In this document: positions 439-54,782 of the stretch, one piece after another | Layout: each line of letters begins with the position of its first letter | Numbering within the stretch: the stretch's first letter is position 1 | DNA from: Nemertoderma westbladi | Lineage: Eukaryota > Animalia > Xenacoelomorpha | Assembly: GCA_032718475.1 (NCBI GenBank) | Contig: JAUCBJ010006934.1 | Coordinates: 1 to 61,472 of the forward strand | DNA: 61,472 bases | Direction: 5' to 3' | The notes under the pieces: generated by a model | The model's database searches: none | What the model was told of the DNA's origin: nothing | The model's input: only the letters and a program-made list of their open reading frames with translations | Made by a program: the position numbers and the translations under genes

Positions 439-766
439 TGTTTCGTTTCCGTTTCTGCTCCTTTCTGTAACTGTTTATTGTTTTGGTTACCTGCTCCTTT
501 CCCTCAATTGGTATGTTACCTGCTCTTTTTTCTCATTTTGTATTGTAACTGTTTATTGTATGTATAAAAGTCAGAAACAACTAAACAATTTTTTGCAACT
601 AGAGGGGAGTTATCTCAGCCTAAAGGGAGTGTTCTCAGTTCTCAGCCAATAAACAGTTACAATACAAAATGAGAAAAAAGAGCAGGTAACATACCAATTG
701 AGGGAAAGGAGCAGGTAACCAAAACAATAAACAGTTACAGAAAGGAGCAGAAACGGAAACGAAACA
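439..766. repeat. Perfect 120-bp inverted repeat (439-558 / 647-766)
   Basis: 647-766 is the exact reverse complement of 439-558. Confidence 0.92.
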
Positions 767-1620
767 CGGTAGTGCGTTTTTACTAATTGTGAATACAGCA
801 GTTCCTTAGGCCTTAGGGCGAATTGTAATTAGTGAGTTTTTTGAAAATTTTAGCTAGGTTTGCGAGAATTCAGTTTCGGTCAAAATTATTTGTAAAATTC
901 TAGAGTTTTGTACCGGTATGTTAGGTAACCGCTTAGTTATTTTATACCATCTGGAGATACATGGCAAGACGGAACTTCTGAGTTTGGGGTTCGTGTGGCT
1001 CTGCGGGTTCGGTTTGCAATCAGCGAAGAGCCTGAATCTTTGGACGCGGACGTGGAATCTCACAGCAAACAAGGTTAGTTGTTCTGTTGGCACCATTGTG
1101 TTTGTGGAAGCAGTAAAAAATTATCGGTTGTTTAACTGCGAAGCTGAACTCAATTTATTAGTTAGGATATTTAGGTTTAGCCGGCTATGGTTTTTTGAAT
1201 CGCTCAAGTTAGAGAGAGAGTTAGAGAGAGTCGCAACCCGAAGATGTAGCCACGCGCTAGTGGATACATATAATATTTGAAATTAAAATTTTGTTGATTA
1301 GAGCTATATATGCAAAATTGGAATTATTTGGGTGGCAAATTCATTCTGAATATTTTGTATTAGATTCAGAAATTATTTTGTGTCATACCGGTATTTAAAT
1401 TGCTATAATAGCTATATAATAATATTTTTATTTAAATATTGTGCTAGTATTTGCTATAACTATACCCTATTAAATTCACAATATTGCATTGCGAATTTAT
1501 TTGACATTTTGGACCAACTGATTATTAGACAAATAATTTGACCGTATTTTCGGTTAAATTATAATTATATCTCGAAATTTTGCGAGATATTTTGCCGGAA
1601 GGCAAAACATTATTTAGACT

Positions 1621-4600
1621 ATGAGTGTCTCAGACAAAGAGGCACTAGAGGACAGCTATGAGACGGCGGCTGGACCGCCGACTGACGATAGCGTAAATAT
1701 TACTGTTGACGACAATGCCGACTATGACGACGCAGCGAGCGACGCTGACGTAAGTGAACAGGAGGACGAGACAGTGACTAGTGAGGAAGAACAACAACCT
1801 CAATTAATAGTATTAGGATCCCCTACCACTACTGTAAGGAAGGACCGCACAGCAGCCCGGACAGAGGTGAGTGATAGGGAGGGTAGTGTAGCAGAAGCGA
1901 GAGCCCGGAGCCCGGTTTCCAGACCTGTGGGTATGGTAAGTGCCATGGTCCCGACGGCTGTAAGGAGTACCCGTAGTTCCCGAAATAATCCTTCAAGTCC
2001 ACCGAGTGTGAGTCAGGTAAGCGAGAGAGAACTAGACATTGCGATAAAGAAGAAACTTCGCGCGCATGCCGGACATATAACTCGGATGACGGACAAGGTA
2101 AGGAAGATGTTAGCTGACTCAGCGAACATCGGGAGGGTAGAGTTAGTAGAGATTAGAAGAGGATATAACTCAGCGTTATTCAAGCAGATGGAGGAGCTTG
2201 CAGTCCTAGCGAAGAAGGCAGTAGAGTCTCAGTCGAGCGACGTGGCGACGAGGATTTACGACAGGGTTTTAGCAGCCTTGTTGGAGCACCGCGAGTTATC
2301 GGAGCGATTCCGACGAGTTAGGACGGAGAACTGGCTGCTATGGGCATCACAAGCGCAGGCGACTCAGGTGAGTGACGCAGAGTTGAGAGACTTAGTGGAG
2401 CGGGAAGAGATCCAAGATAAAGAAGAGCGCCGGTATCAAAGGGAAGTTACTAGCTGGCTGATGCAGAATGGAGTGGTGGTACCAGGCCAGGTGCTACCGA
2501 CGACGGAGAACATCCAACAGAGGACGTTGACTCCACCTGACGATGCATCCAGAGACAGCGGCGATTCCCAGGTTAGTCACGCGCGAGGGAAAGTTATATA
2601 TGCTAGATCCCTTGTTTCTCACAACTCGGCGGAGGAGAGAAGACGCCGACTGGATGAACAACAGGCGGAAGTTTTGCGTGCATCGGAAGCACGGAAGGAA
2701 GCCGAGCGGGAACGGGAGCGCACACGTAAGTTGGACGCGGAGTTATGAGAGTTGGAAGAGATAAGTAAGCGCGAGCGAGCGGAATGCGAGCAAAAGGAAC
2801 GCGAACTCCAAGCCGAGCGCGAGCGCGAGGAACTCGAACGCGAACAGAGAGAACGCGAACTCCAACTTGAATGCGAACGGGAAGCGAAGAAACACGAACT
2901 CCAACTCGAACGCGAACAGGAAGCGAAGAAACGCGAACTCCAAGCCGAACGCGAACGCAAGAAACTCGAACGTGAACAGAAGGAACGCGAGCTTCAACTC
3001 GAATGCGAACGCAAGGAACGCGAACTCGAGATCGAGAAAAGAAGACGCGCATTGTATGAAGAAAAGGAGCGAGTGGAAGAAGAGAGCGCAGCGAGACGAG
3101 CGAGGGAAGAAGAAGAACGTAAACTGGCGCAGTTGGAAAGTGCGAGATTAAGTTTAGAGAGCGAAGAATGGACTAGGAAGGCGAACGAAATCGCCGAGAA
3201 GGGGATGCGAATGATCGAAGAATGTGGGGCGAGTGTAGGGACAGAGTTGCGAGAACTGTTCGCACTGCAGAAGGCCGAACAGGAAGCGAGAACTCCAACT
3301 ATACGCGAGTCGACGACGACCAGAATTCCTATACCCGGTCCAGCTATTACGAGTACACGGATCGCTAAACCGTTCTCTACATATCGTACACCAGTTGGTA
3401 TTAGTGCTTCACCTATCGCCCAGGATCCACGTCATCGGAACACCGCACCACTATACACCGAACGCGACAACGAAGAATTTAGAGGAGAAACTCCGACGGG
3501 ACAAGTATTTGGCGAACCGAACCCGCGGGTTTGGAATACGCGAACGGAGCGCCGACCCAGTTCGACGGAGAACTTCCGGGTTAAACCGGAAGAGGGATCA
3601 TATGAGAGACAGCAGATTACTCAGATAGAGCCGACTATGCAACAGAACCCTAGCCAGGAATTTATTACGAGGGATGAGTTAAGTGCTAGTTTGGCGCAAG
3701 CTATATTGCCGCACATCCAACCTATAACGGACATGCTTAGCAACCTACGGTTAAAGGAAGCAGCCCAGGTAAGAAGTAATTCTAATCCTAGCAGGCCTGA
3801 GTTAGATAAAGTCCAACCTAGTCAACGAGTACGCATATCGGAGGAGACTATACCACATAGACCTCAGTTAAGGACGCCTGTCCCGAATATTCATAATCCC
3901 AATTTCGAAAATTCGGCCGAGAAATTTATACAAGATGCTTGGGTCAGGGCCTCGGCACGCAAACCATCGCGAGCGCTAAGGACTGACACCGAATCAAGCG
4001 ATGAAGAGGAAGACATGAGACGTCAGAAGTCCCGAAACTATAAGGAAAGAAGGACCGACGCGGAGCAGGTAAGTTTGAACCACCGGGAAAGGACCAGACT
4101 TAACAACCCTGCAGAACTAAACCATTTGTTAACCCGGAATGACGCAACCCTTAGGGACATAGGTAAGTTTGCTGCTAGGCAAGGACTCCCGACGCAACAA
4201 CCCCAGAAGTTTATGGGTAACCATAAGCACTGGAGGACCTTCAAAACCTATGTCGACGAGCAGCTAACCAACAGCACCTTTACTCCCAACGAGAAGTTCA
4301 ACTATTTGCTTCAGATGCTCCATCGAGAACCTAGAGCCATTGCTGACAACTTCGTTGGCAATGAAAGGGCATTTGAGTTGGCAATGAAGACGCTTAGTGA
4401 CATCTACGGGAATAAAACCAAGATGGCACAGTCGATAGTAGAAGACTTGGGTAAGTGCGGAAGGATTACAACTCCGTTAGAGCTGTTGAACTTAGCGAAC
4501 GCTATTTCGAACGCATTGGACATCTTGAGGACGGTGAATCTACCTCATCATGGTGATCACGCCAAAGTTTTAAAGAGCGTAATAAGACGTTTAAACATGC

Positions 4601-7600
4601 GTTATCGACAGAAATGGCGCAAATTAGAGAATAAGTTGGAGGGTCAAGGTAAGGTGTTGACACTTCAGCATATTCATGACATGATAGCCACAGACGCAGT
4701 AGCAGAGATGAAATCAAACTTCTCAGAGGAGAATATGAGAGAGTCTAAACCTGTTACCGGTAAGTCTATGGTAAGTTTTGACGATGACAGGACCACTGTG
4801 ACATTTAACTCAGTAGACAGAAATAATTCGAGTACCCCAGCCTTTAGATCAGACTCGCGAGTATGGTCAGGTGAGCGGTTAGATAGACCTAGGTTAAAGC
4901 AACAGGAGTTGCCGGATGGATTTGTAGGTTGCCAATACTGTTTACTAAAGGAGGTAAGATCTGACGATCATAAGTTAGATAGTTGCAGACGGTTCAAAGA
5001 ATTAAATTCGGAACAGAGAAGAGTTCAAGTGCGGACGTTGGACACCTGTTGGGCATGTCTTGCGCCAGGCCATGTACGGCGGCAGTGCCCGAACAGCAAG
5101 GACGGATGCATGGAATGCGGCAGACTACATCACAGGTTGCTACATGCGGATTTCCATACCCCAACGGACCGTTACTTACAGCGAAATCCTCACAGGAAGG
5201 GGAGCAAAGAACCCGTATCGATAAGAAGAAATACGTACACCGGCATTCAGGACGATGGTTATCAACCAGGTTCGTCGGACGAAGATGGCGAGTCGAGCGC
5301 GAGAGAAGTGACCTGCCAAGGTTTCACCGCGGATAGTTCATCGACCAGCGCGCGGACGTATTTATCATCGGCCACGTCGGAAATATTTAGCGTGATTCCG
5401 GTGAAACTTACTGGAGATAAGGGATCGAAGCGAATATATGTGATGTTGGACACTGCGTCCACATTATCTTATATCGACGAGGAAGTGGCGAGAGCCGTTT
5501 CTAGCTTCCAGGACGCCGAGGAAATCCAAATAGAGTTGAAGTCTATGCACGGGGTAGGAGACCTCAAGGGACACAGAATTTCGGTGGAACTAGATTCCCT
5601 ACTTCCGAGAGACCAACATACTCGACAAGAACGGAAAGCTTTGCCATTGGACGGATTTAAGTGTCTAGCTATGAAGGGATTCGGCAGGCAGTTAGGTAAG
5701 GTGCCGCCGATGAGTCCCATAGCACAGGAGTATTTTGACAAGCTCAGAATACCCAGACATCAGGTAGGTTATAGGAATGTTTCTATGTTAATTGGTGCAG
5801 AACAGCTGATCGCACACCAAATATGGGAAACGAGACCAGCTGAGCCGCATGTCAATGGACCACATGCCCATAGGACTATATTAGGTTGGTATACAAGAGT
5901 ACCCATGTCTTATGAGTTTACAGGTGGCGACAAGCCAATAGACAGATACGACGAATTACAGCCTATAACTCAACCACCGTTAGTAGAACCACCAGACATA
6001 GACGAGTTTAGGAGAACCTGTATTGACCACTATAGTGACTTTAGCGAGTCGGACGAGGAGTTGATTCCCGATAATGTTAGGTTGTCGGAACCACTTCACA
6101 ATGACCGGACAGATAGTGAACCCGAGGACTGTTATCAGACCCGTGGGTCTGGTTCAGCGGCCCATGCTACTTATCTGAGTAACGTTTTGACTTATACCAA
6201 TATAGTGGAGGGTCAAGTGGCTAAATATCGAGACCTCGACATTTTCCAATACAGTGAGGAGGAACTACAGAAGGAATTGATACGCCAGGACCTCGAGACA
6301 GGAGCCAGAGCCATCGAATGGCTGGATAGGGACGCAATGGAACCCGGTGGATATGACCTAACCATGTCTACTGATGAGAAGCGGTCGCTGGAGATGATGG
6401 AAGATACCATACGTCTGCTACCGACTGGACATTTTGAAGTTGGAATGTTGTGGCGTCGACAACCACCTAAGTTGGAGAACAACTACAACTTAGCCTTGAA
6501 AAGATTGAACGGAGTAAGGGCTCGGTTGTTGAAGAATCCAGGCATTAGGGAGAAGTATTGCGCCCAGATCAACAACTATTTCGCCAAGGGATTTGCTGGG
6601 AAGGTAGAGGACCCTGACTTAGTGACAGACCAGACTTATTACCTTCCACACCACTATGTGACTCACCCTGACAAGCCTGACAAAGTCCGAGTAGTCAACG
6701 ACTGCGCAGCAGTCTATAGAGGTATGTCCCTGAATTCAGAGTTGATGGATGGTCCCAACCTGAATAATTATTTGATTGGAATACTGTTGCGTTTTAGACA
6801 GCGGCGATTCGCATTTACTTGTGACATCGAGGCGATGTTCCACCAGGTAAGAGCCTGTAAGGCAGACCAGGATAGCCTTCGCTTTCTCTGGTATGAGAAT
6901 GAAGACTTATCCGGCCCAGTGGTTACATACCAGATGTACGTTAGGATATTTGGCGCCCGCGATAGTCCAAACGGCACGCTGTTTGTTCTAAAGAAAACGG
7001 CAACAGCCCAAATTGGTAAGTACCCAGTAGAGGTTATCGAGTCCATCTTGAGAAACTTCTACATGGACGACGGATTGGTGTCCAAGGACACGGCGGAACA
7101 AGCCATAGAAGTGGCTCACGGCCTGCAAGAGTGCTTGGCTACAGGGGGATTTCCTCTGACCAAGTTCACAACGAACTCGGAGGCCCTATTAGAATCGTTC
7201 CCGGTGAAAGATCGCGGGAGCGGAGACATTGAATTGGGGGTAGAACCAATCCCCATGGCGCGAGTACTGGGACTCGCTTGGAATCCGAACACGGATAAAT
7301 TCCAGGTAAGAGTTAGATTTGAGCCCAGTAGCCCAGACAAGGTTTTGACTAAGAGAATTTGCTTATCGACATTGAGTAGACTATTTGACCCGATGAACGT
7401 TATCAGTCCGGTTATATTACAGGCACGAGCGTGCATGAGGAAAATTTGGTTGTCCGACCTAGAGTGGGACGAACCAATATCTCCTATACATGCAAAGCAG
7501 TGGAGGGAGTGGGAAGCCGAGTTGCATCTATTGAAAAATATAGATGTACCCCGTTCCTACTTTCCGAATCAGCTGGTATTTCCAGCTGATCTCGAACTGC

Positions 7601-10014
7601 ATCTATTTAGTGACGCAAGTGACACCGGCTTTGGTATGGTAGCCTACCTTCGCCGAGAGGTAAGTCAGGACAAATTTGAGATGGCTTTTGTGACTTCTAG
7701 ATCAAAGACAATGCCGGTCAAATACATGACTGTCCCTCGTGCAGAGTTACAGGCGGCTGTAGTTTCAGTCGAGGTAAGTAAGCATATAACTGAGGAGTTA
7801 GACACGACATTGACCTTATTCTATTGGACGGACGCATCCTTTGTGTTAGTATACATTGCGGCCGACAATATTGCACTAAAGACATTTGTGGCCAATAGAC
7901 GCGCTCAGATCGTTGACTTTTCGACGAAGGAACAATGGAGACATTGTCCGGGAGTGTTAAACCCGGCCGACATAACTTCGAGAGGTGCAATGCCGGCGGA
8001 ATTCTGTCAGGAAGAGTCGCAAGAGTTTTGGTTGCATGGACCTGATTTTCTAACCAGGACACAGGAACATTGGCCAGAGCGACTAAAGATAGTGACCAAT
8101 CCGATGCCTGAAGATGCAGAAGTCAAAGTGGAGAAAGTCTCTAAGTCAAAGTCTAAAGCCAAACTTAAGTCATTGGAGCGGCCTGAAGAGTCATTGGAGC
8201 GGCCCGGAGACCTGTCAGACCAACAGACTTACGTGACTACTAGGTCCGGAAGGGTAAGTTATGACGTAAAACCACCCTTACAGACTAAACCAGAGTCACA
8301 GTTGGTAAGTGACGGACAGAAAATGACCGACACAATGGAGCCTTTGGTTTCCAAACCTGCGGGTTTGGATTCGAAACTTCCATTAGTTAGCGGACAACCG
8401 TCGCTGGCATTAGAGCCATGTAGTATTTATGATAAATTACTAAATTCGTCTGCCTCTTGGCTGACGATTTGTAAAAGAACTGCGTGCTTAAGCCGATACA
8501 TTTCGTACCTTTGTTTAAAACATTCGGAACATTTGGGAGAACGAACGAGCACTAATAGTGAGCGAATTCAGAAATTGAAACAACCTCTGACAGAGGATGA
8601 GATTGATCAAGCGGAATTAAAGCATTTGAAACATTATCAAATGTGTGCCTTCCCTAAAGAATTCCATCTATTATCGGCTCAACGACCAGTTCTCTATAAA
8701 CCCGTTAGAAAATGGAGTCCATTAATCCATAAGGGTTTGATTTGTCATAGATCGAGAATCCAGACTGTCGACATAAACTCACAGTTCAGGTTCCCAGTGA
8801 TAATCCCTAGTCACCCAATAGAATTGCAAAGAGCGATTCTATGGGATATACACAAGAGGTTGCATCACGCGGGAAAGTTACACTGTTTGTCGGCAGCGAG
8901 ACAGCGATTCATTCTATTGCAGCCAAGCAGGGCAGTAGGCACTATGTACGACGCCTGTCTGGTTTGCAAGAGAGTGAATGCCAGAGTATTGGAACAGGAG
9001 ATGGCTGAACTCCCGGAAGCGATAGTGCAGGCATACGACCCACCTTTTACGAATACAGGGGTGGATTGTTTTGGTCCGATTGAGGCAAAGAGTGGACGGC
9101 TGACCCACAAGCGATGGGGTCTGCTACTGACATGTATGGCTAGTAGAGCCATACACATTGAGCGTGTGGCAGACATGTCGACCAAATCTCTGCTCCTGGC
9201 CTTAAAGAGATTTATGGCCAGGAGAGGACTAGTAAAGGCGTTCTACTCTGACAAGGGTACAAACTTTGTCGGGGGGAATAGCGAGTTGAACGCGGCTCAT
9301 GGAGCGGCACAGAATAAGGAAATTTCTGCAGCACTTTTGCTGCAAAGAATAGAATGGAGATTCAATACTCCAGAAAGTCCTTGGAGAGGAGGAAGTTGGG
9401 AGCGTTTAGTTCGCTCTGTAAAGTAGGCCATTGCCAAAACATTGCCTGTGAACAAACAACATACCGACGACGAGCTGGTCACAGCTTTCATTGAAATCGA
9501 GCATACATTAAACTCGAGGCCGATAGCTATGTTGCCAGACGGTGTTGCATTAACGCCGAATCATTTGCTAATGCAGAGTCCAGCATTTCTTGTGCCGGCA
9601 TCAGAACCCATTAGTGCCGACCTATATAGTCGTAAGAGCTGGAAGGTGACTCAATTTGTGGCGTACACATTCTGGGAATATTGGCGGGAATACTATCTTC
9701 CCACCATATCCACCAGAACAAAGTGGTACAAAACGGTTCGGAGTCTCCAAAGAGGAGATTACGTACTGATAACCGAGCCAATTGTCAAGAGAAAGTATTG
9801 GGAAACAGGAGTTATCTTGCACACACACCCAGACGTGCAAAACATAGTGCGCACAGTCACTGTGAAAATTAGGTGCAAGTGTCCACACCCAAAGAAGTGT
9901 AAAACTAATGGTTTACACACCTTGGACCGACCGGTCCAATATATCGTATTGTTAGAGGAGACACGTATCGAGACGGGAGATTATAATTTGTCTCCTGCCT
10001 CAAAACAGAATTAG
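1621..10014 (+). pseudogene. BEL/Pao Gag-Pol polyprotein (~2797 aa) with in-frame stops at 2746-2748 (TGA) and 9424-9426 (TAG)
   Basis: ORFs 1621-2748, 2752-9426 and 9442-10014 are in one frame. Motifs: DUF1759-like Gag (KFMGNHKHWRTF), Cys/His knuckles (CWACLAPGHVRRQC), protease LDTAS, RT YLPHH/CDIEAMFHQV/FYMDD, RNase H FSDAS/NPADITSRG, integrase HHCC and DDE (VDCFGP, SDKGTNF, WERLV). Confidence 0.95.
2761..3130 (+). repeat. Low-complexity coding repeat (E/R/K/Q coiled coil in Gag)
   Basis: Repeated gaacgcgaactccaa units encoding ERELQ-like heptads. Confidence 0.8.
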
Positions 10015-10713
10015 TGTTGGATGCAACTCACTTCGTATGCATTCCTCGTATGCAAATACAAGGAAATGCATAGGAGCGGGGTTGTGGTGATTTGCGTTGA
10101 GTTTTGTCTGGTGGGTATCAAAAACAAAATTTTATTTTCAAAATTTTTGGAAAATTAGAAAATTTTAAAAATTAGAAGTGAACCCAAGACAATTCCAGAT
10201 GCTGTGTATAGACGCGTTTTGAATTCGTCTATAGATAAACAGTAATTTGAAAAGTCGTGAAGCCTGGAAAATAGCATTTAGAAACCATGGTGACGGCTAT
10301 ATTACGTAGGAGTGTAAATTGAGTTTAGCAACTTCCACAGATTGGTGCCAACAGTGCAACTAAGGTGCTAAAGGTTAGTAGCACCAGAGGCGTACATGGA
10401 CCCCACTCAGTAGTTTGCAGTGATGTGTGATGTTCGATTATCAAACCTGTGGGTTTGGTATAGTCGAGTATTGTGGCTATGGTCCTTTCTAACTACTGTA
10501 GTTTAGTACGAGTAATGGGAGTAGTTTGGGCATCAAAAAGTGAGTTGGTCACGGCCAGTTTATCTCCAAAGTTTTTGCGCTATGCATGGGAATAGGTTAG
10601 AGGATAGTTAGTTAGGAAGAGACGGGATCTAGAGAGTCGAACCTGAACTGCTGGAAGGCAGCGGGGGGGGGGGGGGGGGGGGGGGGTTCGGGAGGTCTGT
10701 CTTTCGGCAACAT

Positions 10714-10732
10714 CTAACTGATTTACCCACAG
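10714..10732 (+). promoter_or_regulatory. Candidate branch point and splice acceptor for a subgenomic accessory-ORF mRNA
   Basis: CTAAC...tttacccacAG about 60 nt before ATG 10792; candidate donor AAG|GTTAGT at 1071-1079 in the leader. Confidence 0.5.
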
Positions 10733-10791
10733 TGTAATTGGTTACGTAACGGAACACTTATTGGGATATATATGTATATACGCGGGGCATA

Positions 10792-13700
10792 ATGGAGAAG
10801 GATATTAGAGCGCAACCGCGCAGAGGATTTACTGCCAGAGAGGAGGCGGAGTTACCATTCGCGCGACCGGGATGTAAAGATTCGAACGTTTACTACCATG
10901 GGCGGTCGGTGATGGAGCTAAATGGGAAATACAAACCCACTTATGATAAGGAATTACGGAGGGAAAGAATGAGAGCGTTGGGGGACCGTATGGAAGTTTT
11001 GCGAAGAGAGTATCGCACTCGGTATCCCTACGACTTCGCTTTAGACGTATGTGACATTAGTGCAGACCCGGACGAGGAGATCGCACGGCTGTACCATATG
11101 AATATGTATTTACGATATGAAGAACCTCTACCTGCAGTCCGCGATCAGTTCGACGGAATGCATCTGTACCGGAGGACTCGAGGCGAGGATCAGGAGACGC
11201 CGAAAATCTTCAGCGTGTACAAGCTGTTCTACAAGTGCGGTGAATGCATGAATAAACAAGACGTGGCGATTCCCGACCGACTAGACGAGCAACATCCAGA
11301 ACCGATATTAACGCGATGTCAAGCTCACCAGTTCCTTAGATATAACGAGGGAGGTTACCCGATGAGCAACCCGATGATCAGTATCGACTTCAGCGGAAAG
11401 CGACCTCCGAGACCCATTACGCCGACCGTTACGACATTAGATCCGTATACGGAGATTAAACCCTGTTCGACACCCAGTTTGATAGAGATGGCAGCGGCCA
11501 TTTCGCTGTACCGAGCCTATAAGGATCTAGAGGCGCGGCGCGGCGCGAAGCGGCACGGGACTCGGGTACCAAACCCGCGGGTTTGGAGCTCTCGAGTCCC
11601 TGGACTGCGTTTACTTCACCTCACCGAGCGAGAACCCTCACTCCTGAGCATCAGGACGACATAGACGCGTTGCGACGGGAGGAGCGAGCGGCGAAGGCGA
11701 AAGAGTTATTCGAGAATAGGATAGCGGAGTACAATAAGACCGCGGATAGACATCAAGAGGAGACGAGGAGAGTGACCGGATTTGTTCCACAGGCCGTATC
11801 TCAACCCCGACCGGTGTATTATTCCGACGGCAACGAACCTGCGATATTAGTAGATCATCCGGAGTCGCGAGAAGCGATAAGATTCTTGCCGATGGTAAGA
11901 ATGGCGGATCATTGGAACGTTGACTGTCTACGGGAAGTTTTATGCGCGAAGTTCTTGCGTGATGTCCCAATGCAGATCACAGATTATGACACATTGGACA
12001 AGATTGGAGCTCCGGGGAAGGAGAGCAAACTGTTTGGATGGTTGGATAAGTACATCAAAGTATGGGTCGCGGTGGCTACATTCCCAGACGACGAGGAGGT
12101 AGACCAGACGTGGCTGAGGAGGAAGGGTTCTTACACCCGATATGATGACCACAAGGCTATCGAGCGCATGTGGACCCCATCAGATGAGATTCAGCGTCAG
12201 TGGAGGAAAACGGAGGAATCACTGCAGGATTGGAGGGTGATGTTCTATGACAATGAAGGAGGGTCCCATCAGGAATGTTTGACTAGCAAGTGCATTCAAA
12301 TTCGCGCAGCCGATGGTGTGACTCATGTGTTTATGCGCGTGAGGGCGGATAGAGAGAGACCGGAGCCCATCATAACGACACAATATCGGAGGGGGAAGGA
12401 TCCTAGGGAGCAGATTTTGGAGGTATGCAGGCGAGGAGGTATGCACGGAGCGGAGCGTATCGACGCCAGGATGCTACCCAAGAAAGTTAGAGAGGCTATT
12501 CTCAACCAAGATTACGTCAAGGTGGGATCAGGAGTCCAGAGCGATTTGGAGAGTGACTTCAACGCCATGACTGATCTGGAAGATAGATTGCCGAGACCGT
12601 TTGTCGACACCAAGCTATTGTTGCTATGGGCACAGGATATTGGAATTTATAGAGAGTATCCCAACTCTGCCAAGACTGGTATGGGCTTCATAGCACACTT
12701 ATTGTATAATTGGGACTTTAAGTTAAAGACGCAGAAGAAATACGAGGAGGCGTATGGCGAATACAACACGCCACCGGGAGCGGAGTTCAAATCCCACTTC
12801 AAGCGGCAAGCGTTAGTGTATTGGAACATTTGCGCGCCACCCCGTGCGTCGCTACAATATTATTTGGTGCTTGAGTCGAACACGGTGACTTGTTTATTAG
12901 CGGATATCGTTGCGCGAGTTTTGAAGCGCCATCCATTGGTATTCGGAGGAGATCAATACGTTCGCTCGAAAGGGGGAATCCAATCCGACGTGATGAAGCG
13001 TTTCTTAACCCCGTTCTTCAACCAATCGTTAGAGAATACGTCGATGGTTAGGAGAGGATTAGCGATATTCGAAGGAGTATATCGACAGAACATCGGAGAT
13101 TTGGGAGACCGACCGTCGATGGAATATCCGACGCCAGAAGCCTTGGAGAAGTGGTTCGGGAATCAAACCCGCGGGTTTGGTACTCCCTTCCACTCGGAGG
13201 CTGATAGACCCGTTAAGGAGGGTTGGCCGGAGACGTTAGTAGAGGTGTTCGGAGTAGATCTTCCGGTGGAGAAGACATATCCGAAACGAACGCGGGAGGA
13301 AATATTGGAGATAGAGGACAAGGGCGAGGATGTTTACATTGTCTGGATCGACAACCGCTGACCGGAGAGGACGACATCGTATTAGACATTGGGAAAGAGG
13401 GAAGTGCGAAACCGATTGGAGACCTCATATACGAGAGGGCCTGGTTTCCACAAGCGCGTAGGTGTAAGTTATGCGGCAGCACAAGGCACAATCAAAAGTC
13501 GTGCGACGCGGTAGTAGAGGCGGCGCATAAGGTCTGCCGTTGGTGTAATGAGACCGACCATTTGTTTCACACGTGCACCGTCTTCATTTCTCAATGCGGA
13601 TATTGTGGAGTAAAGGGACATCGCAGCGCGAGATGTCAGTTGCGAGATGATTCCTTCCAAAACCATAGCGCTAACCTACTTCGGGAGATGTTAGATAAGT

Positions 13701-14293
13701 GGGAGAGTGTGGCCGACTACCACATTCAAGCGCAGATGCGTTGGTTACCATTTAAGGCGGGATACGGTTTCTGGGCAGTAGACCCCTCTCACGTTGCATA
13801 TGAGCCGTATTTACAGTCTTTGCCACAGTATCAAGAGCTCATCCTGACCGCTCAAGACCTTCCACAAAACACTGGAGTTATCGTAGTCCGAGAATACTTT
13901 AGACAGTTAAATATGGATAACAAGTATACTTGGAACTTTGTTGCCATTTGCGACCGGATTACAAAAGGTCTGTTTTCGGAAACTAGAAAAGTGGTACGCG
14001 CACGAGGTGATTGGAGGATGGCGGCTATACAATACCGCAACGAATTCTTGTTGACTCATGTACCAGTGGGGTCATTGACCGCTGAGAGGATACAGGAACA
14101 GAGAATCACAGCGACCACAACGTCGACCGCTGGAGCTCAAGGCTCGCGGAAAGAACCAGGAGGAGAGGTCCAAGACAAGCGTCAAGTCAAGGATGACCAC
14201 TGTCACTCTATTATAGAAGCGCAGAGATTGCCGCGCAAGGCGCAGGGAGCGTCGGAAAAGGCGCGAGTACCGAAAGAGGTGAGGTCTCTATAG
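10792..14293 (+). pseudogene. Accessory ORF of the BEL element: unknown N-terminus + DEDDy-like (WRN/EXD/RNase D family) 3'-5' exonuclease + 3x CCHC zinc knuckle; two frameshifts
   Basis: ORFs 10792-11664, 11583-13361 and 13223-14293 join after removing one GCGCG unit (11533-11547) and restoring one C near 13355. ExoI FYDNEG, LPKKVREAIL..VKVGSGVQSD (ExoII), FVDT, W..PP..LQYYLVLE (ExoIII); CX2CX4HX4C three times at ~13463-13640. Confidence 0.75.
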
Positions 14294-16053
14294 GGTGCTC
14301 GCAACAGGCGGCGGCGGACTCGTGAGGGTCTGGGGGCACGTTAAATCTCCTTTTCAAAGTGCAAGGGAGATACTGATGGCCCTCGTGTCTAGCGAACCAT
14401 GAATCAACATGGTGCCGTGGTTCCGTCTAGTCGGCCTGTTGCCGTACTGCCAGTCCTGTACACAGTAGGGGTGGTGGCATGGCGTGATTTGTGGTGTCAT
14501 GTGGTGTGAACTGTGGTTTGTATGTGGGCGATCAGTGGCAGTTGCTTGGGGCTCGGATGGGTTCCTTTGACCATCAGCTGTTCCGTTTTTTTGATACTAT
14601 ATGTTATTGTCTCCATGTTCAGCTGATTGGTCTTTGAGATTTGTTTGGGCTTTTGAGTTTTCTGTTGCTGTGGGTACGTGAGTACACGTGATTGTGTGTA
14701 TGGCCACTGCGAGTGAGTGTGGGAAACCTTGCCAGTTGGCTCAGTCGCCGCTGGTATTAGTAGGACCATATTTTACTGCGCCCCAGCATACTTTGTGCAC
14801 ACAAAGTTATTTTGCCCTGACGGCAAAATAAAGTACTCTCGACTATCTCTTTCGCGATGTCTCTAGTCGATACAACTAGTCCCTCTCGATTTTGACCCCG
14901 ATTTTGTCTTTCCCGATTATGACCTCTGTGTGTGCATGGTATGTGTCCAATTTGTGTACTTGATATTGTGAACATCTGTTGAGTACACGTGTACAGTGAC
15001 TGGTAAGTGGTTACTTGTTCTTAGCTTTTGAGCAAGACAGTATTGTTTTTCAATACTGCCGGCGAGGCAGGTGAAAATGAGTCAAAATTCCATGTTGGGT
15101 AGCGCAAGCCCACATGGGACAAGACCGTCGGTTAGGCCCAAGGGCGACCTTGGTGCTCGATCGCTATCGACTGGTCCACCTGCCGGTTGACTCTCTGAGT
15201 TGGCTCAATGTACAGTCAGGCCACAGTAAGTTGACAGTAGCCGCCTATCTGGCTACACGTTCGACGAGCTGTGCCGGTGTGATCGGGGAATTGAAAATTG
15301 AACCCGGGAAGCATCGGGCCACCCCCCGGCCCGGTCTGATAATAACATCAGTCGGACTGGCCCCAGGGGTGGTGGAAACACGTCCGCCTCATGGGTGCGC
15401 CTCAGGGAGGAGCCCAGAAGGACGAAAGCGGCAACTGCAGAAGGAAGAGTTGGCGGAAGCGACCACAGGAGCACGACAATTGGGACGAGGCCGAGGTAGA
15501 AGTACCAGCTGGGAGTCTGTCGGGGCTCAGGGAACATCGTCGCCGGTTCCGGGGAGTGACGCCTCACGGACGCCGTCAACAGAGTCTACAGGGGGTAGAC
15601 TGGTGTATCTGGGAAGAGGGCGAAAGAGGGTAGCGAGCCCAAAGAACCCAGGAGCGGGTCGATAATACATTATAGCACAGGGCGACAGACTCTAGATATA
15701 TACATCATCGTCGCTCTGATGTATATTGTAGCATTTTAGAAATATCCGACTAGACTCATATACACTAGTTGAGCTGTTTTGAATTTATATTATGAGAGAG
15801 GCGAAGGAAGTGATTGGGGAGACAAACCTGCGGGTTTGGCTTACTCCTTTCACTTGCCCTAGCAAAAATTTTATATTTGATCTTGTATGTAGTAATCATT
15901 ATGTAGTACGAACGAGAAACAATATTTTGTAAATTTAATTTGTATGTAATAATCGTTAAACAGTGAGAGAGATAATATTTGTAAAATTAATTTGTATGCA
16001 ATTCATTATGCAATATTGTAAACGTTCGAATAAACATTATAAAATAATAAAAA

Positions 16054-16086
16054 CCGACGCGTTTCGAATTTTAATTCGTCTTCAGG
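16054..16086 (-). ncRNA. Minimal hammerhead ribozyme motif (inverted copy)
   Basis: Reverse complement of cCTGAAGAcgaattaaaattcGAAAcgcgTCgg. Confidence 0.6.
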
Positions 16087-16200
16087 TATATAATATTATT
16101 TATATATTATATTATTTTATATTATATATTATATTATTATATTATATATTATATTATATTATATATATTTTATTATTATAATATAATATTATATTATATA

Positions 16201-16233
16201 CCTGAAGACGAATTAAAATTCGAAACGCGTCGG
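16201..16233 (+). ncRNA. Minimal type I hammerhead ribozyme motif
   Basis: CUGAAGA core, stem II GAAUU/AAUUC, GAAA, palindromic ACGCGU stem III, GUC cleavage triplet; stem I is weak. Confidence 0.62.
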
Positions 16234-16443
16234 TTTTTATTATTTTATAATGTTTATTCGAACGTTTACAATGTTAACTCTAGCTACTTTATTATGCAAT
16301 ATCTATAGCAATATTTTGTAAATAGTAGGATTTATAGTATCAAGTATTTAGATTATTTGAAAGGAAATTTATTTTGTTTGTATACATCACCTTATACTCT
16401 TCTACAGTTGGAGGGAAACATTGTATGATTTCCCTTGGAGCGG

Positions 16444-18676
16444 TGTTACGGTATATGGCGCTGTACACATTATTAGCCATTATACAGTATAATATATTGG
16501 TCCATTATGCAGTATAATATATTAGTCCGTTATACTGTACGCAATATTAGTCCGTTATGCAGTATAATATTTTAGATAAGATATAATAGCGAGGTGATAT
16601 TTAGATAGGGAAATTGAAACGCCCATATATTTTGAACTCATCCATTTTGTATAGTATGTAGCCCTACCTACGTAATTTTGTATTAAGATATAAGTAGATA
16701 GTTCCAGGGTAGCAAGTTCAGTTGGACCCTGGATTTTGTGCTTGCTGTTATTAGCTTCGATAGGGCTAGCATCTAGGGACGCTATCCTAACCATTCCGCA
16801 GCCAGGGACATGATCCATTACCATATATGGTAATAATTTGAGGGTTTGGGAAGCAATAGGGCTACAATCCGGCTTTCTAATTGGACTAACTGCTTCCAGG
16901 TTGGTCTAATGCTAGCGCGGACTGGAGAGCCAATAGGAGAGCGATTGCATCACCCTTATTGCATCACCCTTCTCGGATCACCTATAAATTGGCGGTTTGC
17001 TGGTAGAGCTGTACCAATTCCCTATTCCCTCAGTCCTTATTACCAATCTCTATATCACCCTTCACCTACTTTTAGGAGTACAATTTTGTGCGTATTTTCT
17101 GCATTTCTACCTTTGATTAATTTTCTTGAAATGATTTGCAAATTTATAATTTCTGTTTGATTCTTGTTGTGTTTCTCAATCAATCTCAAAGATTACTGCT
17201 AATTACATCATGGAACTGTGATTTCTACCCTTTTGTTAATGGTTCTATGTAATTCTTTTCGACGCAATAATCCTACGGGATTTCTGAGACTGTCAGACTT
17301 GTGATTTGCATGCGCCGCTACGGTAGCTATTCAATCAATGGAGGGCTAAGGTGCCAGTAGGCGGTGGGCTCATCGGGGGGTTAGCGACGAAGGGAGTGCG
17401 GAGGATTCAAAGGCGGGCAACGCTGGCGGGGGTCAACGTTGTGGTCGGGCAATTTGGGCTGTAGGTTGGAGACCGCTCGCTGGTACAGTAATTAGGGGGC
17501 TGATGATCCAGGTTTTGTCTCTATTTAGTATTAGGGGGCAGGAATTGGGTTAGTTAGGAAGCCTAGATGTACCCGGGAGGGGCCTGCATACCTCACAGTA
17601 GATTGCGAATTAGTCAATTGCGAATTATTATGTTGCGAATTATATAATTGCAGATTGTATAATTGCAAGTCGTGCTATTGTGATCTGTGATTGCTGACGC
17701 TGATTGGTGTGTTACTGAAGTGTGCCTATGATTACGAATGCTTAGGTAGGCGCCCCTTTCTCTTTGATTGATTTCTATTTCTTAGTTACAACAAATAATT
17801 ACTGATTAGGTCAAAGTAATACGGCATTTTAGGCTATTACTAGCGAAACCTGTTGTGTAATAAATTAGAATTACGCATTCTGGAACTCTTAGTAATTAGT
17901 ACGCTGTTACATATTTGTGACTGTAATTGATTAGTAAAATTAAGAATTAGTACGCAGCATAGCGGAGAGTAGCTAAGGTAATAATTTAGAGTACCGTAAA
18001 CTATTCACGCTGAGCGGTTATTTGCATTAGCGGGCAATAAGCTAGATCGCAGTAGTCAGTACGCAAGACACTAGTAAATTGCTGGCCTAAAGCCAGCTGC
18101 AGGCAAGTTTAGACCCAGAGCGGTATCACCTACGAAAGACATTGTACTGTACCATTATTCGATATTTTAAATATTCTCGCATTCACACATTCCGTTAGGG
18201 AACCCTCAGTATTCGCGATTAGAAGAGACGTAAGCATTGGCGTATTTCAGTGGTAAAATTAGGCGTAAGAATATACTCTGAGTGCAAAGCCCCTCGCACT
18301 CGTCTTAAGTAAGCTTAGGGAGCCGACTCGGGTTTATTGTTTTGGTTATTCCCGCGTGGCTCATAGATTCGAACAGTTAGCTCTCTATCGAGCGATCGGT
18401 AGAGAAAGGAACAAGCGATTTTGCAGGAGCCGTGTAAATTTAGTAAAATATATTAGCGGACGGTAGATTAGCGCCATCCAACGGTAAGTAGCGGTTTTGT
18501 ATTTAGCAACCTTTACAATTTAGTAATAGCACGCTCCTGATCCCCTTTACTTAACAGTAGAGCAGTCTTTGTGTCTTATTGGTTAGGCGAGAGCTCATTA
18601 GGTTGGCAGAGAGGTATACGGGTATTTGTCTGTTCAACAGTTCTGCTGTTAGTATAGGTGTCGCGGTTGTTTATCA
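16444..18676 (+). repeat. Putative long 3' LTR of the BEL element (truncated)
   Basis: Starts TGTTAC right after a purine-rich tract; CCAAT at ~16930 and TATAAA at ~16983; no second copy in the window to confirm. Confidence 0.5.
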
Positions 18677-18790
18677 CTAGGCTAAGATAACTGGGGAATG
18701 TTCTCAGCCTAGGCTTAGACGACTGAGGAGTGTTCTCAGCCTAGGCTGAGACGACTGGGGAGTCATTTCAAGAGGGAGTTATCTCAGCCT
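18677..18790. repeat. Remainder of the right terminal array of the foldback element
   Basis: Reverse complement of the 1-128 units; continues seamlessly from 647 (ctcagcc|taggctaag). Confidence 0.75.
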
Positions 18791-19729
18791 TGTACACCGG
18801 TAAAACTGAACTCCATCTGCTTCTAAATATTATGCCAGATAACTGTTAATTATATTTTTAATTAAATTTTTATTGATTACAATAATAACAGACATCCATA
18901 ATTCCACCATCCAACAGACATCCAGCATAATCCATCTTCAAATATAGTCGATTATTCTTTTATTTCAAATTAAATTGATGATAAATCAATAATTTTTTTC
19001 AAAATTGTATCACGGCCTCAATGCTAAAGATACAGCTTATATGAGGACAAATTGTAAAAAACTACGATTGAGGATTCAAAAGAAACTTACCAAAGGCCGC
19101 CAATATTATAACTGTCAGCATATAGTTAAACATAGTTCAGTGAGAACAATGTATTTTATTATTTTGTATTTGCTAGAAATAATTGTTTGTAAAATAATGC
19201 ATAATATTATCAATAGTAGTGCATATTATATTAAACAACTGTCATTATGGCTAATTTTATATGCGTTTAAAACCTAATCCAAACAATAACAATCAATAAA
19301 TCACAACACTCAACACTCTAAATTGTATTGCGTATATTTTCTTAAGAAAATTATGGATTGTGTAAAAAGGATTAAACAGGAATTATAATATAACATATGG
19401 TGACAACAAAATAAACACTCTAAATATTGAATGATATTGAATCAATACTGAAAACCATATGTAACCAACCTACTTGCATGGGATAGCAGGGTGAATGAGC
19501 CGATTAGTGAGTGTATGTTTAGACACAGGAGTACTTTCTTATTGTCCTTCATTCATCGTTTCCATTTACATTATTGGTATTGGTATTACGACGACAAGAC
19601 AAATTCTATTCAGAAGTCTTGTATCCAAATTTCGGTTTTTCGGTTCAAATCGGTTTTTTCTTTCTAAAACCAATCTTATTCATAATTGTGGTTCACTATG
19701 TTCTACGCATGTCCTTAGATTATCACAAT

Positions 19730-29445: not shown

Positions 29446-29614
29446 CAATACATATATTATATTACATATAATTATTAACTTTTATATATAATATATATAA
29501 AGAGATTATTAGTTAGTTATAGTTATATTTTTGAAATGAGTCGAACCAAAACAAATCAAATTATTTTGCACATATTTGTTTACTTTTTGTAATTTTTACA
29601 CCACCTAGCAAGCA

Positions 29615-31843
29615 ATGGCTGCATCTGAGAATCCATATCAAATTTCCAAAGAAGGTCTCAAGATATGTTTGATTGTTAACATCACGGATTACAAGGACAA
29701 TTCAAGACATCCTGGTTCCAAATACGATGTAGATTTCATAAATAGGGTATTTGGAAATGGGTTAGGCTGCAAAATAGTCCACTTTTTACCTCATCTCAAT
29801 GGCACAATTACTCGCAGTAATATGATAAATGGCCTGGATGATTTTCGCAACCAAACATTGCTTAGAGAAATTGAATGTCTTTTTATTTTTATCTTGGGTC
29901 ATGGAGCACATGGAGCAATCATTTGTTCTGATGAGCAAGAAATAATCATAAAAGACATCGTCAGAAAATTTGCCAATGAATGTTTGTCTCTAAATAACCC
30001 ACCAAAACCTCGTGTCATCTTCATTGAAGCTTGTCAAGGAAAAACAACATCTACTGACATGAATGAGAACTATATAAATCTCAATTATCCAATGTTTAAC
30101 CACATTGCAGTAGCAATGGGATGTAGTCCAGGTGAAAAACTCCCTCTCTACAGCAATCAGGGCTCTCCATTCGTAAATCTTGTGTGCGGCACCATCGATA
30201 CTATTCTAAAGACTCACACTTATGGAGACATAAAGACTTCTCTATTTAGTAAATTAAAAATTGAACCTATTAGGTATGGAAACAATATGACGTCACAACC
30301 AGTAGTAATTGATAATTTATTGCAATCTTTAAATTTTATTGACTTTGTTCAAACACTTTCTGTATTTAATCTCGATATCCATTCAGATGAGGTTCACTAC
30401 TTCCCAGATAAGCTGCGTTACTTGACTTGTGGCCCAAACGGAATTGGAATATTTAGTAAATGTTCTCGAAATTTGGTAGATAATCTACCTATCCCAGGTG
30501 GAGTAACTTATGTAACGAATTGCGCCATTTCACACAATGGCCAGAGAATAGCGGCTTGTACACAGGATTGCCGAATACTGGTATGGAATCTAAATGACAT
30601 CTGGGAGGTTATATTCAATATTTCAAAAAGTTCACTGAGATTTCCTTCCTCCAAACTTCACAGAATTATATTCCACCCATCAAATCATTCCAATATTGCG
30701 ACATGTTACTCTGATGGGAGTAGTACAATTATACATCTTCACCCGGAGATCAAAAATCAGATTTGGAAGTCCCATGACAAGGCAGTACTCGATATTATGT
30801 ACTCACCTGATGGGAGCAAACTCGCCTCCTGTTCTAAAGATAGACTAATCAAAATCTGGAAAGTAGATGGAGTGCCAATCCAAGAACCACAATGGTTAGA
30901 TACTCATTCCTATCATAATATGGCTGTGCTGAGTATCAAATGGACACCTGATGGGAGATACATTATCTCATCGAGTGATGGACACACGTCGGTTTATTGT
31001 TATGATGTAGAATGCAGAAAATTGATGTGGAAATCAAATATTAGCGCAACCTGTATTACTGTACATGAGAAAGGAAATCTAGTGGCTATTGGAGGAGGGC
31101 CAATAATAAAGGTGTTGGAAGTAAATACTGGCAAATCAATTCGTTCAATTAAGGCGGAAGGGAGGGTAAATCTCAACAATATAGAATTTGGGGGAAATAA
31201 ACTCCTAAATTCGTGGAGCAATAATCTTGTTAAAGAATATGATATTGAAAAAACGATAGAATCTAATTCCAAATTGAATAGCATAGTATTCCCAGTGAAA
31301 CAAAAAAATCATGTGGTTATATCAGGCTCAACAACTACAACAATAACTTTAAACTTTAGAAATACATCCATTCAAGTTACTGAATATAAACTGAAAATTA
31401 ACGAAATTTATACAAGTAACAATGAAGAAATTTTTAACATCATTGATGGAGGAACTAAGGAATACACTATAGAGGGTTTAAATCCAGGAATATTGTATGG
31501 AATATCAATATCAGCATTTGATACTGGAAGTAGAGAAATATTGACTAACAGAGTTGTACAAAGGGTTGTAATCAAACCATGTAAACCTCAATTAAATAGC
31601 CAACAAGTAATATGTGATACTCATAGCTATGAATTAACATGGACTCTTTCAAAGGGAATGTTTACCCATCAAATGATTTGTGTTAAACCAGGTAGCATGT
31701 CCGCATTCTTCCCATTAGTGGTTCTATATGCAGAAAAACAATACCCTAGTAAATATCCATTAGATGATCTAAGACCAGGACTAATATACAACTGGTTTGT
31801 TTTTTTTTTTTTTTTTTTTGATTGGGTGAGAATGATAGTATAA
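29615..31843 (+). CDS. Caspase (peptidase C14) + WD40 repeats + FN3; 5' part of an interrupted gene
   Basis: CLIVNI..PGSKYD, catalytic His ILGHG, catalytic Cys IFIEACQG, GSPFV; WD40 HDKAVLDIMYSPDGSKLASCSKDRLIKIWK; FN3 GLNPGILYGISISA. The last 14 codons read into the insertion. Confidence 0.88.
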   Translation: MAASENPYQISKEGLKICLIVNITDYKDNSRHPGSKYDVDFINRVFGNGLGCKIVHFLPHLNGTITRSNMINGLDDFRNQTLLREIECLFIFILGHGAHGAIICSDEQEIIIKDIVRKFANECLSLNNPPKPRVIFIEACQGKTTSTDMNENYINLNYPMFNHIAVAMGCSPGEKLPLYSNQGSPFVNLVCGTIDTILKTHTYGDIKTSLFSKLKIEPIRYGNNMTSQPVVIDNLLQSLNFIDFVQTLSVFNLDIHSDEVHYFPDKLRYLTCGPNGIGIFSKCSRNLVDNLPIPGGVTYVTNCAISHNGQRIAACTQDCRILVWNLNDIWEVIFNISKSSLRFPSSKLHRIIFHPSNHSNIATCYSDGSSTIIHLHPEIKNQIWKSHDKAVLDIMYSPDGSKLASCSKDRLIKIWKVDGVPIQEPQWLDTHSYHNMAVLSIKWTPDGRYIISSSDGHTSVYCYDVECRKLMWKSNISATCITVHEKGNLVAIGGGPIIKVLEVNTGKSIRSIKAEGRVNLNNIEFGGNKLLNSWSNNLVKEYDIEKTIESNSKLNSIVFPVKQKNHVVISGSTTTTITLNFRNTSIQVTEYKLKINEIYTSNNEEIFNIIDGGTKEYTIEGLNPGILYGISISAFDTGSREILTNRVVQRVVIKPCKPQLNSQQVICDTHSYELTWTLSKGMFTHQMICVKPGSMSAFFPLVVLYAEKQYPSKYPLDDLRPGLIYNWFVFFFFFFDWVRMIV

Positions 31844-32264
31844 TAACATAGTTGATACAATGGATTTCAAATTGCACTATTACACCCTATCACCAAATCT
31901 GATTTATACAATGAGGTACAGTGATACGGATGTAAGGGGGAAATTCAAAACAGTTGGTTGTTTATGTTGTAGGCCTACTGGTCAGCTATTGTAGGCCTGT
32001 ACGACTGCGCTGTACTACCAGGCTACGGCTCAGTGTCGGCGTTGTCCAACCGAATGGAGGCATCAGACACTGGACAATGAACCGGCCGTTTAGAGGCTGA
32101 CCTACAACCTCGAAGGCAGAGCAGGGAGGAACGAAGCAACGCGAAGTTTAACTTGCGCCGGATCCACGTGACGCATTCCGAGTACCTGACCTCGCGTTTG
32201 TCCGCGAGCTTCTGTCCCAGGCGCTTAACAAACTGGCGCGTGGTCGGCGCCATCCCGCCAATCT
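31801..32264 (-). mobile_element. 5'-truncated CRE-like (RLE) non-LTR retrotransposon insertion
   Basis: Poly(A) tail (T run at 31800-31819); TSD ctggtttgt (31792-31800, 32265-32273); GGMAP..FVKRL..YSECVTWIRRKLNFALLRSSLLCLRGCRS resembles the CRE-clade C-terminus. Confidence 0.85.
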
Positions 32265-32298
32265 CTGGTTTGTAACAAGTATCTCAAAATACAGAGGT

Positions 32299-38157: not shown

Positions 38158-38158
38158 A

Positions 38159-46530: not shown

Positions 46531-46548
46531 CACCCACTCCATATGTTG

Positions 46549-50124: not shown

Positions 50125-50266
50125 TATTCTACTAAATAATCGCTAAATAATATTCTACTAAATTAAATAAAACGATTATAATAAAATTACATAGTAATAC
50201 ATACAGAAATATAAAAATAATAAAATAATATAAAATAATAGAGTCACACACCCACTCCATATGTTG

Positions 50267-54337: not shown

Positions 54338-54782
54338 CTGTAAAATGCGGAACTAATATCGCATTTCGTTTATGTAGTTAGTGTGTGATTTTCTAACTTG
54401 TTTAAAATAATCCGGACTATAATTAGGGAGAATTAACGTATTTATACCTTATCTAAAAGGCTAAAGCATTGGCAATATTTAGGCCCATTATCGTGACAAA
54501 CGAATAAATAACAGATCGGATTTATATTTATACTGACCATGACATATCAAGGGTGAAATCACTAATACTAATTAATATACTATAGCCTTGGGGCGAACAG
54601 GAAGATCCACACGAAACCGAGTAGGGATCGAAGTGACAGCCGTCGCTGAATAAACAGGCTGCGGTCTTCATAGATACCAGGTGATTTCCCGCCAGGCGTT
54701 CGTCCTTATTGCGTCCTCCACGTCATTCCGAGAGAAACTCCGGTGACCCAAGACCTCGCCCTTTAGTGACTAAGGGCGACCA

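Follow-up and report, generated by a model that had tools for sequence, protein, structure and literature searches.

Among described systems, those closest to the locus reported here are the long terminal repeat (LTR) element Cer1 of Caenorhabditis elegans, in which the CERV protein is made from a spliced mRNA and is described as needed for export of the genomic RNA (PMC10309623); human immunodeficiency virus 1 (HIV-1), with Rev and the Rev response element (RRE); the packaging signals of single-stranded RNA (ssRNA) viruses, as described for MS2, picornaviruses and the hepatitis B virus pregenome (PMC6281560); and Rous sarcoma virus (RSV), where a zinc finger of the nucleocapsid (NC) protein is reported to bind the Gs within a UGCG tetraloop (PMC5035970). 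We analyzed a stretch of 61,472 nucleotides from Nemertoderma westbladi (assembly GCA_032718475.1, contig JAUCBJ010006934.1, positions 1 to 61,472 of the forward strand; hereafter the window), in which a BEL/Pao retroelement carries nine copies of an 18-nt hairpin dispersed along its length. This hairpin family is a real, statistically strong and family-specific feature of the element. We consider it quite probable that the hairpins are a functional RNA signal of the sense strand, a claim common to several of the readings weighed below.

The hairpin family resembles each of these systems in part. Like the packaging signals of ssRNA viruses as described (PMC6281560), it consists of many stem-loops with a common motif, placed along genomic RNA and within coding sequence; it differs in belonging to an LTR retroelement, in being a near-fixed 18-mer whose copies are far more alike, in numbering only nine and in having a putative reader. 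With Cer1 and HIV-1 it has in common the setting of an LTR element, an extra protein whose mRNA is a candidate product of splicing, and genomic RNA that carries splice signals when unspliced. However, CERV is described as having H, G and M domains (PMC10309623), whereas the extra protein here has zinc knuckles and a likely exonuclease fold, and its part in export is putative; the main text of the CERV paper makes no mention of "stem-loop", "response element" or "cis-acting" (PMC10309623), and the RRE is one structured region rather than nine small hairpins. A response element of the Rev or CERV kind would be limited to unspliced RNA, whereas three of the nine copies lie 3' of acceptor-like sites. 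We do not class the array as a member of the Rev/CERV type, but only as one that may work like it. The micro-Psi hairpin SL-C of RSV (PMC5035970) has a UGCG loop, which recurs in two of the nine copies (8351 and 15822); all nine have G as the second and fourth loop base, and the element encodes CCHC proteins. SL-C, however, is a single hairpin within a 5' packaging domain, while the hairpins here are dispersed and have a common stem sequence. Finally, the bdelloid rotifer elements Juno and Vesta encode a DEDDy-exonuclease open reading frame, ORF3 (PMC5408684), comparable to the extra frame after pol with its likely DEDD-type fold; the present element belongs instead to BEL/Pao and adds three CCHC knuckles and an N-terminal part, and the word "hairpin" is absent from the main text of that paper.

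Seven hairpins had been proposed in a sequence-only reading of the window, and all seven 18-mers lie where that reading had placed them, starting at positions 3517, 6135, 8351, 10441, 11569, 13163 and 15822. The pattern CARACCYGYGGGTYTGG, allowing at most two mismatches, matched the window 14 times at 8 sites against 0.05 expected (0/100 dinucleotide shuffles), a test that is partly circular because the pattern was built from the copies themselves. A motif-blind 16-mer search of positions 740-16050 returned the hairpin family as its top group, with 8 members against 4 in the runner-up. Within gag-pol, a relaxed core was counted five times against 0.08 under synonymous-codon shuffles, none of 500 shuffles reaching five. 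In addition, a covariance model trained on eight copies (the original seven and one at 1919) was scanned unfiltered over the window and recovered the eight training copies, six opposite-strand images of them and then a site at 4849 (+). This site is the best match not used in training (14.7 bits, E 0.022) and fills a 2.6-kb gap, while the best match outside the element within the window had an E of 0.3. The copies thus total nine, namely the original seven, 1919 and the degenerate, held-out 4849.

All nine copies lie on the plus strand. The first (1919..1936), in the N-terminal region of Gag, has a UGUG loop, a G.A mismatch between stem positions 4 and 15 and a low pairing probability in context (0.01-0.04); a splice-donor-like site starts on its last base. 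The second (3517..3534) lies in a low-complexity region of Gag (PNPRVW), with a CGCG loop and one G-U wobble; its stem is not extended (z +0.9), and its pairing probability is 0.22-0.55. The third, degenerate copy (4849..4866) stands directly before the Gag knuckles and has a CGCG loop, a compensatory U-A closing pair, a G.A mismatch and a pairing probability of 0.80-0.85. The fourth (6135..6152; CGUG loop, compensatory G-C pair) falls in the linker between protease and reverse transcriptase (RT; QTRG), and the fifth (8351..8368; UGCG loop, z -3.5) in that between RNase H and integrase (KPAGL). The sixth (10441..10458; UGUG loop) is non-coding and precedes a branch-point-like CTAAC by about 30 nt. 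The seventh (11569..11586), in a linker of the accessory region, is palindromic over all 18 bp, is centered on CGCG and has a long lower stem; it is in the top 0.1% when 70-nt windows of the element are ranked by folding energy; the eighth (13163..13180; CGCG loop, long lower stem) separates the exonuclease-like part from the accessory knuckles, and the ninth (15822..15839; UGCG loop, z -3.35) lies in the 3' non-coding region. The loops seen are therefore CGCG, UGCG, CGUG and UGUG, and between 9 and 14 of the 14 stem bases agree with the palindrome in each copy. Stable tetraloops of the YNMG/UNCG kind are Y-N-(A/C)-G loops closed by a C-G pair. Five of the nine copies fit this class (term as used in PMC5311481); 4849 has a U-A closing pair, and in 1919, 6135 and 10441 the third loop base is U.

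The pattern of substitutions supports single-strand pairing on the sense RNA. As the sequence-only reading had noticed, changes tend to give G-U wobbles on the sense strand: 12 of 12 one-sided, pair-keeping changes from the perfect palindrome do so on the plus strand (C>T at position 1 in four copies, at position 8 in four and at position 10 in three, and A>G at position 3 in one), and the mirror form does not occur, an asymmetry with a probability of 2^-12 if the changes are independent. Substitutions across the element family have no C>T excess (C>T 116 vs G>A 140 in sequencing run X1; 122 vs 139 in X3), and the element has a CpG observed/expected ratio of 1.04, that is, no CpG depletion. 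Decay of CpG as the origin of the loop variants was rejected on this ratio and on the lack of mirror changes. The compensatory A-U to G-C change reported for 6135 is present, and 4849 adds a second, from C-G to U-A at the loop-closing pair, so that the description of the family as covarying is true but thin, with two compensatory changes in the core across nine copies; pairing is broken at three positions (G.A in 1919 and 4849, A.G in 15822). An alignment of eight copies had 87.5% paired cells against 78.1% when shuffled (0/500), with the structure derived from the same sequences.

The flanks likewise extend the stems beyond controls, in line with the proposal that several copies cap longer stems, and the lower stems at 11569 and 13163 are long. 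Around a core held fixed, fold-back of the native flanks exceeds that of shuffled ones (Stouffer z -3.2 over eight copies), although p<0.05 is reached singly in only three of eight and the flanks of 3517 go the opposite way. The minus strand gives a similar value (z -3.5), which means that this test speaks for pairing and not for strand. Compared with 24 distinct chance matches in phage contigs, flank fold-back was stronger at p 0.017 for nine copies and 0.030 for the original seven, and a full four-pair lower stem is present in five of nine copies against 0/24 chance matches. In contexts of 218 and 418 nt, the hairpin forms with a probability of 0.8-1.0 in seven of nine copies on the plus strand and in four to five on the minus strand. 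Single-strand pairing is thus supported by the 12:0 G-U asymmetry, the two compensatory changes and the flanks that extend the stems.

All nine copies lie outside conserved blocks (defined from Pfam and tblastn; chance about 0.013 for the seven internal copies), and the three linkers named in the sequence-only reading (PNPRVW, QTRG, KPAGL) do use three reading frames within the single gag-pol frame, the five gag-pol copies covering all codon offsets. Gaps between copies range from 1128 to 2659 nt. The array had been called quasi-periodic; its copies are spread more evenly than chance would place them (P 0.0037 for the seven original copies, 0.0008 for nine), also when only permissive regions are considered (P 0.0017 for seven, 0.00025 for nine), but the gaps have a coefficient of variation (CV) of about 0.29, and true periodicity did not hold. 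The proposal of a distributed cis-acting RNA signal thus gains from the wobble asymmetry, the compensatory changes, the extended stems, the linker placement, the even spacing and the absence of the motif elsewhere in the window, while its function is what we infer.

The host element has a gag-pol in one frame (1618..10014, +) with DUF1759, Gag knuckles, protease, RT, RNase H (Peptidase_A17), integrase and DUF5641. The Pfam matches to DUF1759, Peptidase_A17/RNase H, integrase and DUF5641 and the order protease-RT-RNase H-integrase place it in BEL/Pao, and its best relatives are BEL polyproteins of about 40% identity, the named ones mostly from marine invertebrates; gag-pol fragments 200-1220 used as protein queries gave two weak matches. 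Three Cys/His motifs at 4930, 5047 and 5107 form a triple Gag zinc knuckle (4930-5145). Of seven sequencing runs listed, six contain the stretch, and none of these is recorded as RNA. The window copy has stops at 2746-2748 and 9424-9426, and we compared it with aligned contigs assembled from the reads of four sequencing runs (region 600-16000; 40 of 1200 variants and 12 of 128 indels listed). At the second stop these read contigs do not have the window sequence, and they also depart from it in small indels close to 10.75 and 11.5 kb; the frame breaks at these three places therefore look private to the window copy. Read contigs matching the element at 80-100% identity number 24,514 in run X1 and 11,062 in X3, which points to a large element family with subfamilies. 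No motif copy contains any of the 40 of 1200 variant places or 12 of 128 indels listed, where about 0.3 would be expected, a result that is uninformative on conservation. At position 1945, nearly all aligned depth in three runs differs from the window base, and the alternative base would give the lower stem beneath copy 1919 one more pair, a single anecdotal site.

No long direct repeat flanks the window copy as an LTR pair, and read contigs have loose ends at 766; therefore the 5' end of the element looks truncated. The element body alone exceeds 15 kb, against about 9 kb for two whole contigs (L002, L006) with pol between long direct repeats. Downstream of the last hairpin is a 264-nt inverted repeat (16012-16275; arms 90% identical, AT-only core), a candidate fold-back insertion or assembly artefact, and then 2.4 kb of unassigned DNA without a hairpin copy (16280-18670) between the element body and a host repeat, possibly a 3' LTR or a separate element. 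On either side the element is bordered by short host repeats (1-130, 430-765 and 18670-18790), and a scrap of BEL RNase H lies on the minus strand at 284-427.

An accessory coding region follows gag-pol (10750..14293, +), in three overlapping frames in the window copy. The overlaps look private to this copy because of the small indel near 11.5 kb and the loose ends near 13.3 kb in the read contigs. The sequence-only reading had called its product a CCHC/exonuclease protein. Three CX2CX4HX4C knuckles are visible at 13463-13636 (+), whereas the exonuclease label stands as a lead: the middle frame has Atlas feature scores of 0.89-0.90 to DNA_pol_A_exo1 clusters, and the stretch at about 12216-12980 (+) is read as a likely DEDD-type exonuclease fold. 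The N-terminal part gave no usable Atlas match, and the accessory frame has no close protein relatives; among 1.84 billion representatives, the exonuclease-like stretch has one relative, of 27% identity. This relative (P0123) is a 648-aa protein on a 9.4-kb contig that shares the exonuclease-like stretch and ends in CCHC knuckles, its domain matches being weak (exo1 E 0.2, CCHC E 0.046); therefore, the accessory architecture appears to exist elsewhere. The copies at 11569 and 13163 were also considered as frameshift stimulators, a role that was dropped as no slippery heptamer was seen upstream by eye and as the frame overlaps look confined to the window copy.

Gag-pol also contains 22 splice-donor-like GGTRAG sites (1867..8310, +), 11 of them GGTAAGT, against 7.9 under synonymous shuffles (0/500 shuffles) and one on the other strand. 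GGTAAG is the most enriched gag-pol hexamer (19 vs 4.5), GGTAAGT occurs 11 times against 1.8 expected and 0 on the other strand, and the excess of GGTRAG holds in both codon phases used (15 vs 5.2 in phase 0, 7 vs 2.5 in phase 1). The accessory frames have no donor-motif excess, and acceptor-like sites are not in excess (18 vs 18.1). When acceptor-like sites were ranked by a simple consensus score, CTAAC accompanied just two of the 20 best. These have the form CTAAC ... YAG (10470..10732, +), end at 10501 and 10732 and lie directly before the accessory region; six of the nine hairpins are upstream of them and three downstream. A run of about 25 G at 10663-10687, between the two sites, is a possible internal purine tract or G-quadruplex. 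A general tie between hairpins and donor sites was not apparent; a donor lies within 50 nt in three of the five gag-pol copies. Intact 5' splice-site motifs are reported to lead to nuclear retention and decay in human cells (PMC11629677), and U1 in Arabidopsis Copia elements to block premature termination (PMC5580714); by analogy, the donor excess may serve nuclear retention or block premature termination.

The motif is confined to one of the three BEL elements of the window, the one with the accessory region: no comparable hairpin family was found in the two others, and pattern and covariance model gave no copies in the remaining ~46 kb. A repeated 16-mer in the second BEL element was rejected as an artefact of the 3.7-kb tandem duplication of that element. 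For comparison we used 19 metagenome BEL loci of 32-44% identity, many partial or short and some near-duplicates. The covariance-model scan of these distant loci gave two weak matches only (E 0.057 and 0.63), and neither a comparable hairpin family (motif-blind search) nor an accessory homologue was found among them. No loci related to the element were found in viral contigs or in prokaryote genomes. The exact motif occurs at 32 viral-contig loci, each with a single match and with no second site within flanks of up to 3 kb per side, and we read these matches as chance. Rfam covariance models had no match over 600-18800 at E up to 1, and no tRNA genes were found. The sequence-only reading knew of no equivalent in Belpaoviridae, and we found none in the open literature searched, which covered few subscription journals and no supplements. 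The hairpin family would thus be a dispersed RNA signal in a group where we found none reported.

What the signal might do is less certain. Our tentative preference, by analogy with the systems above, is to read the hairpins as docking sites, dispersed along the RNA, at which an accessory protein encoded by the element itself would bind so as to escort or protect the unspliced genomic RNA. In the sense RNA, each copy would form a stem of 7-8 bp, capped by a YGYG loop and set on a looser lower stem; the accessory mRNA would be made by splicing, while the unused donor motifs of gag-pol would hold the unspliced RNA in the nucleus; and the accessory protein, with its knuckles and likely exonuclease fold, would read the hairpins and either escort the genomic RNA from the nucleus or shield it from decay. 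One shared reader, or else cross-pairing, is suggested because the stem bases are kept beyond the needs of pairing. Docking of the accessory protein is favored among readers because motif and accessory region occur together, and because of the precedents of donor-mediated retention, of CERV and of the UGCG-zinc finger contact.

Several observations weigh against this docking. Motif and accessory region were seen together in a single family, and many of the 19 loci used for comparison are incomplete. The three copies 3' of the acceptors would also be present in spliced mRNA, unlike the Rev response element. The accessory region has no direct exonuclease match in Pfam, NCBIfam or the Protein Data Bank (PDB), and two structure models of it were unusable (predicted local distance difference test scores, pLDDT, of 34 and 36). 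No gag donor-acceptor joint is present among the 15 of 108 read-contig joints listed. The second BEL element has a donor excess without the hairpin family, so donor excess and hairpins appear uncoupled. Finally, only four positions supply the 12 wobble changes, and copies 1919 and 3517 pair poorly in context. A fuller version, in which the donor motifs would retain the unspliced RNA and the nine hairpins would form a distributed response element releasing it through the exonuclease-knuckle protein, taken to be captured, is a two-signal switch that we regard as rather doubtful.

Packaging is a possible but somewhat unlikely alternative, in which the Gag nucleocapsid knuckles would bind the G-rich loops, the evenly spaced sites helping to select and compact genomic RNA roughly double the length common for BEL elements. 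The array does place several stem-loops with a common motif along the genomic RNA (folding predicted), evenly over its full length, in an element with three Gag knuckles, and the six copies upstream of the acceptors would favor unspliced RNA; multiple dispersed stem-loop signals are described as established in ssRNA viruses (PMC6281560), and RSV provides the contact between zinc finger and UGCG (PMC5035970). However, Gag knuckles are general to BEL elements and the motif is not, knuckles would read loop bases and leave the fixed stem sequence unexplained, and loop changes in RSV are reported to be without effect on Gag specificity or packaging in some assays (PMC5035970).

It is improbable that the copies are pairing sites that zip two genomic RNAs lengthwise or pair within one RNA. 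Cross-pairing would account for the common stem sequence. The 18-mers are self-complementary through G-U, loop included, for all four observed loops, with predicted self-duplexes of -16 to -36 kcal/mol and cross-duplexes of -13 to -36 kcal/mol. Yet a good duplex is to be expected from every perfect hairpin, sites of identical sequence provide no alignment register, UGUG loops have no C-G pair to begin a kiss, and the lower stems stabilize the hairpin form; compared with dimerization initiation site (DIS) and palindrome (PAL) signals, the loop is self-complementary with wobble and a duplex is predicted, yet the loop has only 4 nt.

Dynein-adaptor localization stem-loops and constitutive transport elements are RNA signals read by host proteins. 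A host RNA-binding protein for export, transport or stability could similarly read the hairpins without involvement of the accessory protein, and their stem, 3' bulge and lower stem are like those of host-read signals in general form, with copies in both the spliced and the unspliced parts. We hold this to be unlikely, given the absence of any Rfam match over 600-18800 at E up to 1 and of the motif from the other BEL elements of the window.

A site in duplex DNA had to be excluded because the 11569 copy is a palindrome without mismatch across its 18 bp, CGCG at the center included, which a dimeric protein of the element or host could bind. The closest analogy is VANDAL and its VANC proteins, reported to bind short motifs accumulated in their own transposon family (PMC5735166); as here, the motif is element-specific, short and present in many copies, and the element encodes an accessory protein, so that an anti-silencing role would be conceivable. 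VANC, however, reads duplex DNA in tandem non-coding arrays as described (PMC5735166), whereas the hairpins are single sites in coding linkers that behave as single-strand structures; a symmetric site predicts mirror changes equally, against the 12 to 0 seen, and duplex DNA would have no use for compensatory pairs or extended lower stems, which makes this reading very improbable. Least probable of all is the absence of function, with the hairpins as relics of small insertions or of template switching tolerated in linkers: every copy does lie outside conserved domains, but shared flanks or target duplications are not visible, the other ~46 kb of the window hold no copy, the changes keep pairing and the spacing is too even within permissive regions (P 0.0017 for seven, 0.00025 for nine).

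The rest of the window contains two further BEL elements and other repeats. The second BEL-like element (46400-54400, minus strand) is internally deleted, retaining gag, protease and a scrap of RNase H, and its 3.7-kb tandem duplication has 96.8% identity; its sense strand carries 17 GGTRAG over both copies and three GGTAAGT against 0.25 in one gag frame. The third is a BEL pol frame (57067-61470, minus strand), open for 1467 aa to the window edge; it lacks both a hairpin family and the donor motif (GGTRAG 0 vs 1.6). Long open frames on the plus strand at 29609-35814 and 38130-39023 encode a caspase-like domain, WD40 repeats and many fibronectin type III domains, and a 68-nt tandem array at about 37070-38250 lies between pieces of these frames; part of the 430-765 fold-back resembles its unit.

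Little is known of the ways in which invertebrate LTR elements select, export and package RNA of full length, and as of 2017 no role had been demonstrated for exonuclease-type accessory ORFs, according to the report on the rotifer elements (PMC5408684). The element described here pairs a short RNA motif, kept nine times against coding constraint, with two candidate readers (Gag and the accessory knuckles) and an excess of donor motifs. If a role in export or packaging is true, the dispersed-signal principle of RNA viruses would extend to retrotransposons. If the two-signal switch is true, it would be a Rev-like circuit that evolved independently in Belpaoviridae, and it would give the exonuclease-type accessory ORFs of LTR elements their first function.

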